Sequence record: OQ845958.1
Length of the DNA stretch: 64,000 nt
Source of the DNA: Escherichia phage pEC-M719-6WT.2
Reading direction: 5' to 3' (one strand)
Both the position numbers and the translations under genes were made by a program. Below are positions 3,571 through 16,335 of this stretch, piece after piece. The notes under the pieces are model-generated. The model searched no databases and had not been told where the DNA came from. It saw nothing but the letters and a program-made list of their open reading frames with translations. The first letter of the stretch is position 1. Each line of letters opens with the position of its first letter.

Positions 3571-3582
3571 TATTTATAAATA
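3571..3582. promoter_or_regulatory. Overlapping divergent late promoters for genes 51 and 26
   Basis: TATTTATAAATA: TATAAATA 3575-3582 on plus (gp26 ATG 18 nt downstream) and TATTTATA 3571-3578 (TATAAATA on minus, 25 nt upstream of gp51). Confidence 0.6.
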
Positions 3583-8846: not shown

Positions 8847-9980
8847 ATGGCTTATACCGTAGCTATTGCTCCTTTGGCGGCTACGGCCGTTATTGGAGCA
8901 ACAACCAATTTCACTGCAACCGGCTCTGGTGCTGCAGCTGAAGGTGTTGAATCATTTGTATGGACCGTTGATGGCGTTCCTCAATCTTCTGTGACTGCAG
9001 CAATGGATTATGTCGCTGTTGGCCCAGCAGGCAGTAAGACTATTAAAGTTGTTGCAACTACCACTCCGGCAGACGGTGAACCGGAAACTGCTGAGGCTGA
9101 GACAACTTTAACTATCCAGAATAAAACAATGCCTGCTATTACATTGACTTTAGACCCTGCCTCTGTTACTAAAGAAGTGGGGCAATCTCAAGTTGTTACT
9201 GCTAACGTGACAGGCGCTCCTTCTGGTGCAACAATCGCTTACGTTTGGAAACGTAACACTAGCGTAATCGCAGGTCAAACTGGTAAAACTATTACCGTCA
9301 CCGAATCAGCAGAAGCAAATTATACATTGAACTGTGAAGTTACTGTTTCTGCACCCGATTATAATAATGGCACCGCATCTAAAGGAGCTGCGGTAACTTT
9401 TGTTAAGAAAACTATGTCGGGTGTTTCTGTTACTTTAGCACCGACCTCTATTAATGTTCCTGAAGGAACTCCGGCTTCTTTTAAAGCTACTGTAGCCGGT
9501 GCGCCTGCTGGTGCTACTTTTGCCTATTCTTGGAAGAAAGATGGTTCACCAGTCGCTGGTACCACGGATACTTTGGCAATCGATACAAGCGCCGAAGGTT
9601 CCCAGTTAATTGAAGTTTCTGTTGTTGTATCTGCTACAGATTATAACCCTGTAACCGTTACCAAAACTGGTAATGTAACAGTCACGGCTAAAGTCGCACC
9701 AGTTCCAGATGGCGAATTACCATATATTCACCCATTGCCAGTACGTAATTCAGCTTATATCTGGTGTGGTTGGTGGGTTATGGATGAAATTCAGAAAATG
9801 ACTCTTGCTGGGCAAGACTGGAAAACTGATGACCCAGATAGCCCGTATTATTTGCACCGATACACACTTCAAAAAATGATTACCGACTATCCAGAGGTTG
9901 ATGTACAAGAATCTCGTAATGGTCGAGTTATTCATCGCACCGCTTTAGAAACTGGTATTATATACGATTACGTTTATTAA
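8847..9980 (+). CDS. hoc: Hoc, highly immunogenic outer capsid protein (Ig-like repeats)
   Basis: 377 aa; C-terminal region matches T4 Hoc (YIWCGWWVMDEIQKMT, YYLHRYTLQKM, ESRNG). Confidence 0.9.
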   Translation: MAYTVAIAPLAATAVIGATTNFTATGSGAAAEGVESFVWTVDGVPQSSVTAAMDYVAVGPAGSKTIKVVATTTPADGEPETAEAETTLTIQNKTMPAITLTLDPASVTKEVGQSQVVTANVTGAPSGATIAYVWKRNTSVIAGQTGKTITVTESAEANYTLNCEVTVSAPDYNNGTASKGAAVTFVKKTMSGVSVTLAPTSINVPEGTPASFKATVAGAPAGATFAYSWKKDGSPVAGTTDTLAIDTSAEGSQLIEVSVVVSATDYNPVTVTKTGNVTVTAKVAPVPDGELPYIHPLPVRNSAYIWCGWWVMDEIQKMTLAGQDWKTDDPDSPYYLHRYTLQKMITDYPEVDVQESRNGRVIHRTALETGIIYDYVY

Positions 9981-11749: not shown

Positions 11750-11778
11750 AAAAGGGCCACAAGGCCCTTATTCTTTTT
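11748..11778. terminator. Bidirectional hairpin terminator (GGGCC...GGCCC)
   Basis: AAAAAGGGCCacaaGGCCCTTATTCTTTTT between convergent rnlB and the 24 paralog. Confidence 0.7.
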
Positions 11779-13051
11779 CCAGCGGTGGAAGTTTAACACC
11801 AAGATAAGAACTCAATTGACTTTGGTTAGCCATCTTATCCATATCAGCTCCATCAATAAGGCGAGCTTCTTTATCATCTTTAGCAACGGTGTAAGGGTTT
11901 GCAGTCAAAGCATAACGAGCTAACAGTGCAACCGTAGGCTGTAAGCTTTCAGGGTCAACAATAACCTTGAATTCCCCAACCGAGGTATCACCCTCATCAT
12001 CAACTTCGCTAAGCCCTTCCGTATAAGGCGCATAATACAAAGATGCGACCGTCTGACCCTCGCCCATATCCGCATTTACACCAACAATAACATAATCGCA
12101 TGGACTATTCATATCTGCATAAAGAGGCAAACCGTTCTTCAGAACACCATAGGCCAATTCATCCTGGTCTTCCTTTTTCTCAACCCAACCAGAAGCGGCT
12201 AAAATAGCTGCACAACGGGAAGAAGCAACCGCATATGTACCAGCAAATGAAGTCTGACGTTGAACTGCAGAATTCATTTCACACATATAATAATACAGGG
12301 TTCGCGCGCGGTCCTGTGCGTTATCATATTTCGGGTCAGTGAGATTCAACACGCCTTTTTCAGAAACACCTTGTACCTTGAAGCGGGAACTAACAGTAAT
12401 AAGGGATTGCAATACATCCTTATTAATTTCCTCCGCCATTTGAATACCGAGAATATTATCGATGAAGTCTGTTGCATCGAAACCGTTTGCTTCCAGGTCC
12501 TGGGCAAGCTCGACAGTTAAAGAAGTTTTCAACTTTCTGGATTTAACTTCAGTCTGCCATTTATCGATACGGAACCCAGCTTCAGCAATTTCAGGATGCC
12601 CCTTTTCAAATTTATCAGTGAAAGCAGCATCTGACATCATTCTTATATGTCCAGCAGCAATGGCTTCAGAAATAACTTCACCTAAATCAGTTTCGAGTGT
12701 CCCGGCGAATGGTGATGCTTCCAGAACTTTGAATACAACGCTTTCAAACTGAAACATATCGCCGACTGCATAAGCTTCGTCTTTGTTTGTAAATTCTGGA
12801 ATATTCTTACGCTCGAACATACCAATCTGACCTGCAAATGTTGCTCCACCGAGATAAGTCATTTTATCATCTGGGTTCAGAACACGAACACCATACAGGG
12901 CTGCAACAGGCTGGGTAGTTTTCTGTTCGGCCACGAGCGCTTTAAAAATTCGTTTATTCGTAGCCTGAGTATAAGAAAGCAAATTAGGACGGGCGACCTG
13001 GTTGGCCGCCGTTAATGTTGATTCGTGAATTAGTGCATTAATCTTTTGCAT
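11768..13051 (-). CDS. Head vertex protein gp24 paralog (second, diverged copy)
   Basis: 427 aa; alignable with the adjacent gp24 along its length (TNQPVAALYGV, KSRKLKT.LTVELAQDLEANGF, NPYTVAKDDKEAR); in tandem. Confidence 0.85.
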   Translation of the reverse strand: MQKINALIHESTLTAANQVARPNLLSYTQATNKRIFKALVAEQKTTQPVAALYGVRVLNPDDKMTYLGGATFAGQIGMFERKNIPEFTNKDEAYAVGDMFQFESVVFKVLEASPFAGTLETDLGEVISEAIAAGHIRMMSDAAFTDKFEKGHPEIAEAGFRIDKWQTEVKSRKLKTSLTVELAQDLEANGFDATDFIDNILGIQMAEEINKDVLQSLITVSSRFKVQGVSEKGVLNLTDPKYDNAQDRARTLYYYMCEMNSAVQRQTSFAGTYAVASSRCAAILAASGWVEKKEDQDELAYGVLKNGLPLYADMNSPCDYVIVGVNADMGEGQTVASLYYAPYTEGLSEVDDEGDTSVGEFKVIVDPESLQPTVALLARYALTANPYTVAKDDKEARLIDGADMDKMANQSQLSSYLGVKLPPLEKE

Positions 13052-14332
13052 TTACGCCTCATAAATGATTGGCGGAAGTTTAACACCGAGCAGATAAGAC
13101 ATATTGCTCTGACCGGCCATTAAATCCATATTGGTTGCATCGATAATACGAGCTTCTTTATCGTCTTTAGCAACGGTGTACGGGTTAGCTGAAAGTGCGT
13201 AACGAACCATCAGAGAGATAGATGGCTGCAAGCTGTCTGGGTCCACAATGACCTTAAACGCACCAACGTGCTCTTCATCATCCAAGTCCAGGCCTTCGGT
13301 ATAAGGAGCATAGAAAATTGAGCCTACGACTTCGTTTCCGCCGTAATTTTCTTTAACACCAACAGTTACATAATCCAATGGACTGTTAACATCACAGAAT
13401 ACAGGGAGGCCATTAATCAAATAACCGTACGCTGTTTCGGGGAGCCACTGTTCGTCTTCTGGCCTGTGTTTCAACCAACCAGAACCGGCCAACATAGCAG
13501 CAACACGGCTAGAGGCAACAACAAAGGTACCGGAATAAGATGTAGTTTTCTGAATTTCGGAGTTCATTTCGCAAACCAGTTCGTACAGTTTACGTGCACC
13601 TTCTGGGGCTGCATCGTATGTTAAATCGATGGTGCCATTGTCAGAAACGCCAGTTACTTTATAACGCTTGGAAACGGTAATAAGAGACTGAAGAACATCT
13701 TTGTTAATTTCATCTGCCATAATAGTGGCAAGCAGGTCTTCTAAGAAAGCAGGAGCATTAAAACCATTTGCTTCCATATCCTGGGCAAGTTCAACAGTTA
13801 ATGCAGTTTTCAATTTACGTGTTTTAACCGGAGCATTCCATTTGTTAACCTGGAATACAGCATTGCTAATTTCAACATCACCGGCTTCGAATTTTTCAGT
13901 GTGTGCGGCATCAGGAACAAGGCGAATAGTCGATGCAATAAGACCTTCTTGCAGAACATCAGATAACACTGTTTCTGTGGTCGATGCAAATGGATTATCA
14001 ACCAGAGCTTTGTAAACGATATTTTGGTATTTTACATATTCGCCTTTAGCCACAGGCTGAGTGGCTGTAGTTAATTCTGGAATAGTTGTGCGGTCTTTAG
14101 AACCGACTTCGCCTCCATAAGTAGCGCCCGTCTGGAAACTGAATTCATTATCAGGAGTAAGATATTTAACACCATACAGTGCAGCAACAGGTTGGTTAGT
14201 ACGTTGTTCAGCGATGATATCGCGGTAAATCAATTTAGTCGTAGCGCGGGTCAAAGCAACAAGATTCGGGCGGCCCAAGGAGTTGCTGGTAGTAATAGTT
14301 GACTCGCGCAGTAATTTGTTAATCTTTGCCAT
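13052..14332 (-). CDS. 24: Head vertex protein gp24
   Basis: 426 aa; strong match to T4 gp24 N-terminus (MAKINKLLRESTITTSNSLGRPNLVALTRATTKLIY). Confidence 0.95.
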   Translation of the reverse strand: MAKINKLLRESTITTSNSLGRPNLVALTRATTKLIYRDIIAEQRTNQPVAALYGVKYLTPDNEFSFQTGATYGGEVGSKDRTTIPELTTATQPVAKGEYVKYQNIVYKALVDNPFASTTETVLSDVLQEGLIASTIRLVPDAAHTEKFEAGDVEISNAVFQVNKWNAPVKTRKLKTALTVELAQDMEANGFNAPAFLEDLLATIMADEINKDVLQSLITVSKRYKVTGVSDNGTIDLTYDAAPEGARKLYELVCEMNSEIQKTTSYSGTFVVASSRVAAMLAGSGWLKHRPEDEQWLPETAYGYLINGLPVFCDVNSPLDYVTVGVKENYGGNEVVGSIFYAPYTEGLDLDDEEHVGAFKVIVDPDSLQPSISLMVRYALSANPYTVAKDDKEARIIDATNMDLMAGQSNMSYLLGVKLPPIIYEA

Positions 14333-14358
14333 TTGCGCTTTCCTTTTGTGATATACTT

Positions 14359-14366
14359 TATTTATA
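14359..14366 (-). promoter_or_regulatory. Late promoter (TATAAATA) for gene 24
   Basis: Plus-strand TATTTATA about 27 nt upstream of the gp24 start. Confidence 0.55.
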
Positions 14367-14372
14367 AAAGTT

Positions 14373-14402
14373 GTTTACAACCAGATTAAGATAAGACATA
14401 AT
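14373..14402 (+). promoter_or_regulatory. Early-type promoter (GTTTAC-N18-CATAAT) with conserved leader CCATACTGAGTTA
   Basis: GTTTAC 14373-14378, CATAAT 14397-14402; the same leader recurs at about 52551 and 53597. Confidence 0.5.
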
Positions 14403-14443: not shown

Positions 14444-14725
14444 ATGAACAAAGCAACTTTCCTTCTGAACACCTTTAAAAAATTGGAAATTGAAGTTATT
14501 GCATTGGTCAACAAATACCCAAATGGTGTTAATGGTAATGCTCTGAACAAACTAGTTAAAAAATATGAAAACTTAGCATATGACACTGATTTCTGGTGGA
14601 ATGGTAATTATTCTACTCACACTAAAGATAAAAATGGTAACTGGTTGAAACTTCAAGAAAACAATGTTAACTTCAGAGACCTCATCAAGCGCCGGGTAGA
14701 AGTTCATTTAAATGGTATGGTATGA
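14444..14725 (+). CDS. Hypothetical protein encoded opposite to the late genes, between 23 and 24
   Basis: 93 aa ORF with GGAG RBS, own early-type promoter and own terminator; occupies the position of segD in T4 but has no endonuclease motifs. Confidence 0.5.
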   Translation: MNKATFLLNTFKKLEIEVIALVNKYPNGVNGNALNKLVKKYENLAYDTDFWWNGNYSTHTKDKNGNWLKLQENNVNFRDLIKRRVEVHLNGMV

Positions 14726-14732
14726 AAACAAG

Positions 14733-14760
14733 AAAGGGACCTCAAGGGTCCCTTTTTATT
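14733..14760. terminator. Bidirectional hairpin terminator (GGGACC...GGGTCCC)
   Basis: AGAAAGGGACCtcaaGGGTCCCTTTTTATT between the plus-strand ORF and the 3' end of gene 23. Confidence 0.7.
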
Positions 14761-14775
14761 TAACTTAATCTAGGA

Positions 14776-16335
14776 TTAAATTCCTTTAACATATACGCGG
14801 CGGAAGTAACCGTTCAAGCCGAGGCTGTTAACGATGTCCGGCATGCCATTCTGGATGCGCTTGGCCGGAGCCTGAGCTACCGGGTCAGCGAACGGGTTAA
14901 TACCGATACCGTAACGGGTTTTGAAGCCCATAACCGGCTGGAAGTTTTTCGGGTCAGAGCCACGCAGCGGGGTCAGTGCAACATATGGTGCGTAGTAGAT
15001 ACCAGCATCCATTTCGTTAGCGCCTTTGTAACCGATGGTGAAATAGTCTGCACGAGCATACTGGTCGATGTATACACGGTATTTGCCACCCAGAACACCA
15101 GCGAACACAGCTTTAGTGGTGTCAACGTTGAAACCTTTACCCAGACCCTGAGCAGCATAAGATACGGAGGTATCAACTGCAGCCAGTACGTTAACTACGT
15201 TACGGGAAGCGATGATGAAGTTACCTGCACCACGGCCAGTCTGACGAGCGATTTCAGCGGCTTCTTTATCAATCTGGAACAGTAAAGCTTTGAAGCTTTC
15301 ACCAGCCCAACGAGCGCCACGGATATCAATCGGGTCCTGGAAGTCAAACACACCAGCTTTAGCGCCAACGGTGTTGGTCATACCAGATTTACCAACCTGT
15401 GCGGAGTAGTTAATCCAATCGATAACTTCGCGGTTGATTTCCAGCATAATTTCGGTAGCCAGAATACCACTCAATTCGGCATCAGCATCCATACCATGAA
15501 CAGCGCGCAGGTCCTGTGCCAGTTCGATGGAGTAACTTGCTTTCAGCTGGCGGGATTTAGCTTCGATAACTTGTTTATCGATACGGAAGCCCATTTCGTT
15601 CCACGGGTTATCAGTAGAACCGTTGAAGCCTTCCTGCAATTCGGCGATAGAGGTAGCCATACCTTCAGCGATTTCGGCCAGCTTACCAGCTTCGAGCAGT
15701 TTGGTAACTTCGGCGTCAAGTTTAGCGGCATCAGTAGCAGCAGCATCAACGGTTACAGCTTCAACAGCCTGGAAGTGCGCGGCACCGGTTGCTTCGAAGA
15801 AGTGAGAATAAATTTTACCAACGGTAAGAACTTTGCTTGCAGCCAGAGCTTCGAAAGCCTCAGCAGCGCCCTGACCAGAGAACATAGCATTTGGAGCATA
15901 CATCGGGTGGAAAGCTTCTTTAGCACCTGCAGCTACAGGGTCTTTACCGTAAACTGCACGCAGGGCAAATACCTGGCCAGTCGGGTTGTTCAGAGGCTGT
16001 ACGCCACAAATATCAAACGCAATCAGATGCGGGATAGCACGACGAACCATGCCCATAACTGCCGGCCCAATCTGAGTTACTGCACCAGAGGTCTGGCCAG
16101 CAGCGATATTGGTAGCATCATAACCATGGTCACCACCGATTTCAGCTTCGGTCAGGAAAGAACCAAATGCTTCGGAGATTTTTTCGTCACGGTATTCAGG
16201 AGCGGTCAGAATATCTTGTTCCTGGTTTTCAAAGATTTTAGCGATGATAGCTTGTTTGGAAGCACCAACGATTTCCGGAAGAGCTTCGTTTTCCAGCAGA
16301 GCGGACCATTTTTGAACTAATGCATTCTTTTTCAT
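14776..16335 (-). CDS. 23: Major capsid protein gp23
   Basis: 519 aa; near-identical to T4 gp23 over long stretches (IGPAVMGMVRRAIP, FRRVYVKGI C-terminus). Confidence 0.97.
   Translation of the reverse strand: MKKNALVQKWSALLENEALPEIVGASKQAIIAKIFENQEQDILTAPEYRDEKISEAFGSFLTEAEIGGDHGYDATNIAAGQTSGAVTQIGPAVMGMVRRAIPHLIAFDICGVQPLNNPTGQVFALRAVYGKDPVAAGAKEAFHPMYAPNAMFSGQGAAEAFEALAASKVLTVGKIYSHFFEATGAAHFQAVEAVTVDAAATDAAKLDAEVTKLLEAGKLAEIAEGMATSIAELQEGFNGSTDNPWNEMGFRIDKQVIEAKSRQLKASYSIELAQDLRAVHGMDADAELSGILATEIMLEINREVIDWINYSAQVGKSGMTNTVGAKAGVFDFQDPIDIRGARWAGESFKALLFQIDKEAAEIARQTGRGAGNFIIASRNVVNVLAAVDTSVSYAAQGLGKGFNVDTTKAVFAGVLGGKYRVYIDQYARADYFTIGYKGANEMDAGIYYAPYVALTPLRGSDPKNFQPVMGFKTRYGIGINPFADPVAQAPAKRIQNGMPDIVNSLGLNGYFRRVYVKGI

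Follow-up and report, generated by a model that had tools for sequence, protein, structure and literature searches.

Tandem genes for two capsid vertex proteins in a VR7-like phage, the second of them an old gp24 paralogue or xenologue

The stretch of 64,000 nucleotides (nt) of Escherichia phage pEC-M719-6WT.2 that was analysed in this work (sequence record OQ845958.1), which we will refer to as the window, contains two adjacent genes for proteins of the gp24 family, the family of the capsid vertex protein of phage T4. The upstream copy will be called gp24-I and the downstream copy gp24-II, and their orthologues in other phages the type-I and type-II proteins. The window phage is a VR7-like Gaprivervirus. 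Both gp24 copies are under strong purifying selection and they are clearly maintained for function. Additionally, gp24-II predates the split of the JS98-like from the T4-like gp24 proteins, and it is an ancient paralogue or a xenologue rather than the product of a recent duplication. Based upon their sequences, both genes probably code for functional vertex proteins. The interpretation that we favour, with moderate confidence, is that both products are processed vertex capsomer proteins and that each paralogue assembles mainly with itself, so that the virions would contain two kinds of vertices. In what follows, the gene structure, homology, fold, selection, phylogeny and signature sites are presented as results, while virion incorporation, processing and the choice between homo- and heteropentamers are treated as proposals.

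The two genes and their transcription unit

The coordinates of the two genes and of other features are given in Table 1. A preliminary description of this region had reported two adjacent open reading frames (ORFs) that align along their length with T4 gp24, and both the coordinates and the relationship proved to be exact. In a comparison with the sequences of solved structures, T4 gp24 (1yue) was matched end to end (residues 1–424) by gp24-I with a score of 648 bits and by gp24-II with a score of 497 bits, whereas the gp23 chains matched both copies with just 44–51 bits and in the C-terminal half only (residues ~156–393). The gp23 of the window, which is 86% identical to T4 gp23, likewise showed ~28% identity to either gp24 copy over 250–283 residues. 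Both proteins are members of the Pfam family PF07068, with scores of 329 bits for gp24-I and 327.5 bits for gp24-II (cut-off 24.4 bits), and they are 55% identical to each other over their full length (pairwise alignment, E=1e-173). The identity to T4 gp24 was 69% for gp24-I and 55–56% for gp24-II (69% and 56%, respectively, in a multiple alignment), which bears out the view that the upstream copy is close to T4 gp24 and the downstream copy is diverged with conserved blocks. T4 itself has, as had also been noted, one gene 24, which is located between segD and rnlB. No internal stop codon is present in gp24-I or gp24-II, and neither of the two sequence outcomes against which the preliminary description had cautioned, viz. 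a disabled copy or a closer relationship to another head protein, was observed.

Table 1. Coordinates of the two gp24 genes, their signals and other features in the window; the entries of the last row refer to other phage and metagenomic sequences.
Feature	Position	Strand	Remarks
gp24-I	13052..14332	-	426 amino acids (aa); canonical capsid vertex protein; orthologue of VR7 24(1) and JS98 24a; adjoins gene 23
gp24-II	11768..13051	-	427 aa; diverged vertex-protein paralogue; orthologue of VR7 24(2), JS98 24b and 'capsid vertex protein II'
Gene 23, major capsid protein	14776..16335	-	PF07068, 409 bits; context, partner of the vertex proteins
T4-type late promoter box TATAAATA	14359..14366	-	exact match, upstream of gp24-I
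Shine-Dalgarno sequence AAGGAAAG of gp24-I	14338..14345	-	read from the sequence; kept in relatives
Shine-Dalgarno sequence GAGG of gp24-II	13057..13060	-	inside the last gp24-I codons, 5 nt before the ATG
Terminator-like hairpin and T run	11752..11769	-	directly after gp24-II; 7 pairs, 5 of them GC; TTTTTATT tail
Terminator-like hairpin	14733..14755	-	3' of gene 23; separates gene 23 from the gp24 unit
Small ORF	14444-14725	+	93 aa; PHROG 6003 (E=9e-47), unknown function; homologue of JS98 orf173 and VR7ORF190c
Hoc-like head decoration protein	8847-9980	+	377 aa; PHROG 1149 (E=7e-120); weak immunoglobulin-domain matches
Collagen-like/Hoc-like module	L001 522-1805 (VR7 gp196) and 1-394 (gp197); L017 6793-8922; L019 2676-4506; L020 4890-6427; L023 5326-6841		

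The gene order at this locus is gene 23, a terminator, a small ORF on the opposite strand, the late promoter box TATAAATA, gp24-I, gp24-II, a second terminator and the convergent gene rnlB, and the pair thus occupies the place that is characteristic of the gp24 family, that of a late gene just downstream of gene 23 in the head module. Late promoter boxes of this sequence were observed 22 times in the window, compared with an expected number of 5.35. A similarly spaced late box is present 5' of gp24-I in VR7, VR26, JS98, VR5, Melville, F48 and three metagenomic contigs, as well as 5' of gene 24 in T4, and in the metagenomic contig L023 the box upstream of gp24-I has one mismatch. No internal TATAAATA box was found in any of the seven upstream copies that were examined (those of the window phage and six relatives), and a late promoter of its own for gp24-II was rejected on this basis.

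The downstream gene follows the upstream one immediately, the stop codon of gp24-I (TAA, 13052–13054) abutting the start codon of gp24-II (ATG, 13049–13051) in the sequence TAAATG. In 10 of the 11 loci compared, the two genes abut or overlap by 1–4 nt, while in L023 they are separated by a gap of 1 nt, and because of this arrangement their translation is probably coupled. Terminator-like hairpins were detected at the locus only after gene 23 and after gp24-II, and the latter hairpin also reads as a plus-strand terminator for the convergent rnlB. It may be mentioned that each of the two hairpins that flank the gp24 unit (11752–11769 and 14731–14757) resembles a terminator in either direction, T runs being present on both of its sides, and that they sit exactly where convergent genes meet, viz. 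rnlB and gp24-II in one case and the 93-aa ORF and gene 23 in the other. The two genes thus form one late bicistronic unit that extends from the TATAAATA late promoter through gp24-I and gp24-II to the terminator. Both proteins are accordingly produced at the same time, in the late phase of infection, and probably at similar levels.

The strength of selection on these genes was estimated from the ratios of nonsynonymous to synonymous substitution rates (dN/dS), which were calculated by the Nei–Gojobori method for the window against VR7, VR26 and JS98, dS being saturated beyond the genus level. These ratios were 0.037–0.053 for gp24-I, 0.018–0.027 for gp24-II and 0.040–0.048 for gp23. The downstream copy is at least as constrained as the upstream one, and in view of these data a redundant or decaying gp24-II is strongly disfavoured. 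Additionally, none of the 32 gp24 genes that were extracted and translated from DNA contained an internal stop codon. Gene conversion between the two copies was also considered and was rejected, as the longest exact run that they share is 17 nt and their dS is 1.58; the codon identity at conserved residues is ~0.5 overall (0.33–0.65 per 40-codon window), without any near-identical segment.

Distribution and age of the second gp24 gene

The Escherichia phages TH22, TH55 and UPEC07 share 98.9% identity with this region, while vB_EcoM_VR7, which is the type of the genus Gaprivervirus, shares 91.5%. As a sequence feature the gp24 gene pair is already known and it is annotated in public records. 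In GenBank the two genes are designated 24(1)/24(2) in VR7 and 24a/24b in JS98 and IME08, they are named 'capsid vertex protein I/II' in VR5, VR20, VR25 and VR26, and two 'capsid vertex protein' genes are listed in many other records, including those of Melville and vB_Kpn_F48. All of these annotated pairs (VR7, JS98, IME08, VR5, VR20, VR25, VR26, Melville and F48) show the same arrangement without any structural difference, and the window phage is another member of this series. Its gp24-II is 92% identical to VR7 24(2) at the DNA level, and at the protein level the identity is 95% to JS98 24b, 84% to the Melville protein and 81% to that of F48.

A tblastn search with gp24-II produced matches at the gp24 level in 1,495 places in 1,377 phage records. 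Orthologues with at least 80% identity to gp24-II were present in ~93 of these records, which include Gaprivervirus, Dhakavirus, Salmonella phage Melville (Gelderlandvirus) and Klebsiella phage F48 (Marfavirus), and each of the five such records shown contained two gp24 places. The tandem order gp23, gp24-I, gp24-II was seen in all five genomes examined (Melville, F48, JS98, VR5 and VR26), and likewise in VR7. A single gp24 was confirmed for T4, Mosigvirus, Karamvirus, Winklervirus, Moonvirus and Jiaodavirus, and also for Shewanella phage Thanatos-1, Lazarusvirus, Bragavirus, Krischvirus and Biquartavirus. A search of protein databases revealed a deeper type-II group at 66–69% identity that includes Erwinia phage FBB1, a phage encoding one type-I and one type-II protein. 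In all four of the metagenomic contigs examined (within L019–L023), one of which carries the FBB1 protein, the type-II gene directly follows another gp24-family gene or ORF, the two abutting or overlapping by 1 nt or, in L023, lying 1 nt apart. The pairs in L020–L023 were read directly from the DNA, while the partners in the metagenomic pairs mg9, mg13 and mg14 were matched only by their contigs being of the same length; L019 showed the type-II gene and an upstream ORF that runs in, and for FBB1 the type-I sequence was taken from the protein search.

In the neighbour-joining trees that were constructed for these proteins, the downstream copies, including gp24-II of the window, formed a single clade, which had a bootstrap score of 100% in the tree with 7 sequences and 99% in that with 16. 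The upstream copies did not branch with their own neighbours; they grouped with the single gp24 proteins of T4, Mosigvirus, Karamvirus and Moonvirus (82% and 68% bootstrap support in two trees). Similarly, in quartet analyses with five outgroups, the split that places gp24-I with the T4-like gp24 and gp24-II with the outgroup was recovered in 127–200 of 200 resamples (at least 186 of 200 in 52 of the 60 quartets), whereas the split in which the two neighbours are sisters was recovered in 0–28 of 200. As the type-II clade branches more deeply than the split between gp24-I and T4 gp24, gp24-II is older than the divergence of the JS98-like and T4-like gp24 proteins. The distance of gp24-II from the outgroups exceeds that of gp24-I by a mean of ~0.07 distance units (range −0.06 to 0.18), and since a recent duplication with subsequent acceleration would need an excess of at least 0.27, a long-branch artefact in the placement of gp24-II is unlikely.

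With regard to its origin, gp24-II either goes back to an old duplication that was followed by losses in the T4-like lineages, or was acquired from a divergent lineage. The second of these, in which a gp24 gene from a divergent T4-like lineage would have recombined beside the resident gene during co-infection and the two-gene cassette would then have spread between genera, is possible but in our view rather doubtful. It is in keeping with such a transfer that the two-copy phages do not form one group in the gp23 tree, that a metagenomic type-I partner (mg13) joins the clade of T4, Karamvirus and Moonvirus (95%), and that gp24-II groups, although weakly (64%), with the single gp24 of Jiaodavirus. 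The head module of Melville is also mosaic, as its gp23 (L002 1062–2621) pairs with Moonvirus gp23 with 100% bootstrap support while its gp24-I (L002 2718–4001) pairs with Dhakavirus/Gaprivervirus with 99%, and this conflict points to recombination between genes 23 and 24. However, no single-copy donor above 63–64% identity was found in the phage collection or in a search of 5.8 billion proteins, and every closer match that was examined has a type-I partner. Further, within the JS98/F48-like group the type-II proteins branch in the same order as their type-I partners, with F48 (Marfavirus) first, Melville next, and then Dhakavirus/Gaprivervirus. The gp23 tree, which was used as a proxy for the species tree, was mosaic and had little resolution.

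It is very improbable that a T4-like gene 24 was duplicated in tandem recently and in this lineage alone, leaving a redundant or decaying downstream copy, as could be suggested by the head-to-tail arrangement, the near-equal lengths (426/427 aa) and the one copy in T4. The downstream copy is not placed as the sister of its neighbour in any of the trees or quartet analyses, its orthologues with 66–95% identity occur in at least four named genera and in FBB1-like phages, its dN/dS lies below that of the upstream copy, and since the divergence of the clade it has changed no faster than gp24-I (window–F48 identity of 81% for gp24-II versus 74% for gp24-I; window–JS98, 95% versus 89%). The region had initially been described as a tandem duplication of gene 24, and of this the presence of two gp24 paralogues in tandem stands; a lineage-specific event is not what the trees and quartets show, the pair being ancient.

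Signature residues, fold and proposed assembly of the two proteins

To compare the two types of proteins, an alignment of three groups consisting of 16 type-II proteins, 14 type-I partners and 15 single-copy gp24s was examined. Conservation across the three groups was observed in 116 columns of this alignment, among them those of the spine helix and of large parts of the A and P domains. The type-I partners and the single-copy gp24s show just 2 fixed differences, because of which gp24-I can be regarded as an ordinary gp24; an adaptation specific for the first copy was rejected for the same reason. At 11 sites, the type-II proteins have a fixed residue that differs from those fixed in both of the other groups. 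These type-II residues, which constitute a signature defined in the present analysis rather than a published one, are (in T4 numbering) L25, S26, N32, R34, F36, R56, V57, Q244, F267, Q335 and Y415, and gp24-II of the window has all of them. Seven of the 11 sites are found at T4 residues 25, 26, 32, 34, 36, 56 and 57 (Fisher p=1.3e-4 against 150 eligible conserved sites). In the T4 head as studied by cryo-electron microscopy, aa 26–29 pair on expansion, as parallel beta structure, with the insertion (I) domain linker of an adjacent gp24* in the same pentamer, and aa 11–20 of gp24* extend onto a neighbouring gp23 hexamer (PMC9546572). The signature stretch at T4 residues 25–57 therefore includes the segment aa 26–29 that makes the contact within the pentamer.

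The AlphaFold model of gp24-II has a predicted local distance difference test (pLDDT) score of 75 and a predicted template modelling (pTM) score of 0.71, and its confidence is low for residues 11–32, which is not surprising if this arm becomes ordered only in the shell. Residues 56–57 are located in a modelled strand (49–58) that we take to be I-domain linker 1. When the model was superposed on gp24* of the mature T4 capsid, template modelling (TM) scores of 0.85/0.87 (5vf3_a) and 0.77/0.86 (7vrt) were obtained, compared with 0.53–0.62 for gp23 chains, and the predicted structure of gp24-II thus has the HK97 fold with a T4-type insertion domain that is superposable on gp24*. The I domain at the surface (residues ~61–140) is the most diverged region between the two copies (30–40% identity).

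In T4 the N-terminal decapeptide of gp24 is removed by the gp21 prohead protease, which cuts after Glu10 (PMC9546572). The corresponding N-termini (with an arrow at the position that corresponds to the T4 cut) are MAKINKLLRE↓ST in gp24-I and MQKINALIHE↓ST in gp24-II, and both groups retain the sequence context of this cleavage, (L/I)-x-E↓S. The dipeptide E-S occurs in each of the 16 type-II proteins, and an alignment of 67 sequences shows no variation at E10 or S11.

T4 gp24 (PDB 1yue, 5vf3, 7vrt/7vs5) resembles both copies in its length, its N-terminal cleavage context and the position of its gene after gene 23 behind a late promoter, and the domain order (N-arm, I-domain linkers, insertion domain, spine helix, A and P domains) is common to all three proteins. 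In T4, gp24 is of importance for the stability towards heat, pH 3 and proteases (PMC10580926). T4 differs in having a single gene, whereas in the window a deep-branching second paralogue directly follows gp24-I. This second protein is distinguished from T4 gp24 by its own fixed residues at 25–57; it also has three additional residues near T4 residue 240 and lacks four near residue 295, and its loop at T4 residues 348–359 is longer.

Based upon these observations, we propose that both proteins would enter the prohead shell, where both would be trimmed by the gp21 prohead protease, and that both would act as pentameric vertex capsomers among the gp23 hexamers. In this proposal gp24-II would be the specialised copy, its specialisation residing at sites that overlap the T4 aa 26–29 contact and on the outer surface, and each paralogue would assemble mainly with itself to yield two kinds of homopentamers per virion. 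Self-preferring assembly of this type fits better than free mixing, because the type-II substitutions overlap a contact within the pentamer.

Several considerations weigh against this proposal or against parts of its foundation. The inferred homopentamers rest on the placement of the signature positions in the T4 structure as it is described in PMC9546572. The 55 vertex subunits are not equally divisible between two proteins of similar abundance, so that there would be a surplus of one of them unless their ratio were set by the vertex classes (1+5+5). The trees on which the age of gp24-II is based are neighbour-joining trees on Kimura distances and not maximum likelihood trees, and some attraction of a long gp24-II branch towards the outgroups may be a residual factor, the excess distance being small. 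Lastly, no paper on the role, virion presence, proteomics, genetics or structure of the second gp24 gene of two-copy phages was found in the searchable literature, and the one virion proteome that this search did find is that of a single-copy Jiaodavirus.

A more specific form of the proposal is that the gp24-II homopentamers are placed at a defined subset of the 11 non-portal vertices, either the apical vertex or one ring of five, and that T4 is secondarily simplified. Such position-specific use is possible because the vertices of a prolate head are not equivalent (one apex and two rings of five), and we advance it only tentatively, as a somewhat unlikely case. It is unlikely that the two proteins instead form mixed pentamers or substitute for each other at random, the pair serving robustness or dosage and not two kinds of vertices. 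Their coupled expression from one promoter is in accordance with mixing, as are the 116 columns common to all three groups, but the clustering of the type-II substitutions at 25–57, in overlap with aa 26–29, is what would be expected for a discrimination between self and non-self. Pure redundancy, moreover, leaves unexplained why copies that are only 55% identical have been retained for long, each with a dN/dS below 0.06.

It is quite improbable that gp24-II is not a stable component of the virion at all and that it acts in assembly, for example in the nucleation of the vertices or shell on the scaffold, or in an arms race with the host as a variant that is not sensed. For the latter, it is of relevance that the triggering of type IV Thoeris requires the vertex protein and that a T6 gp24 mutant, A380V, escapes (PMC13243611), and one of the 16 type-II sequences has V at position 380. 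However, gp24-I is still made alongside and it would still trigger the sensor, and Ala380 is found in both window copies and in the other 15 type-II proteins, so that an evasion of defence by way of the T6 position 380 is without support. Further, gp24-II keeps every structural element of gp24 as well as the sequence context of the protease site.

Neighbouring genes and significance of two vertex proteins

The 93-aa ORF (Table 1), which lies between gene 23 and gp24-I on the opposite strand, is preceded by a sigma-70-like promoter (14374–14402). In other phages, the gap between genes 23 and 24 contains the SegD homing endonuclease (T4), an intron-associated endonuclease (Moonvirus NM4.3) or a 475-aa endonuclease (Acinetobacter phage AB-Navy97), and it is empty in Jiaodavirus and Karamvirus. 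From these sequences the gap looks like an insertion hot spot.

Another observation concerns a two-gene module in VR7, VR5 and VR26. One of its products is collagen-like in its middle part and has a conserved stretch at the N-terminus, and the other is a short second Hoc-like protein. In FBB1-like metagenomic contigs this module is located directly downstream of gp24-II on the same strand, and its shared stretches are 40–49% identical. In a tblastn search with the collagen-like protein the matches were swamped by collagen repeats. The module is absent from the window, where only the T4-oriented Hoc gene is present, and the Hoc-like protein of the latter shares just 28% identity with gp180, the second protein of this kind in VR5.

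The late promoter boxes show a strand bias across the window, with 16 of 17 on the minus strand in its first 36 kb and all 5 of those from 44 kb on located on the plus strand. At 3571–3582, two TATAAATA boxes on opposite strands overlap to form a TATAAATATATA-like palindrome.

For the assembly of large prolate capsids the T4 head serves as the reference system, and all descriptions of it include a single vertex protein. The results presented here indicate that a second vertex gene is kept under strong constraint in ~90–120 of the ~1,380 phage records that bear gp24, in at least four named genera, and many of the phages with two gp24 genes are candidates for phage therapy against E. coli, Salmonella and Klebsiella. 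The relationship between gp23 and gp24, where the vertex protein is derived from the major capsid protein and bypass-24 mutations are found in gene 23, is also one of successive duplication and specialisation of HK97-fold capsid genes within one head module, and gp24-II would represent a third tier of this process. The two cases differ in that gp23 and gp24 share ~28% identity in the C-terminal half only and form hexamers and pentamers, respectively, whereas the identity of 55% between gp24-I and gp24-II extends over the entire proteins, each of which appears to form pentamers. If gp24-II homopentamers should occupy specific positions, these capsids would be built from three HK97-fold shell proteins. 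If different vertices are marked in this manner, the two-copy phages would show how a prolate shell distinguishes its geometrically non-equivalent corners, and they would also provide two different sites on the capsid surface that could be used for display engineering.

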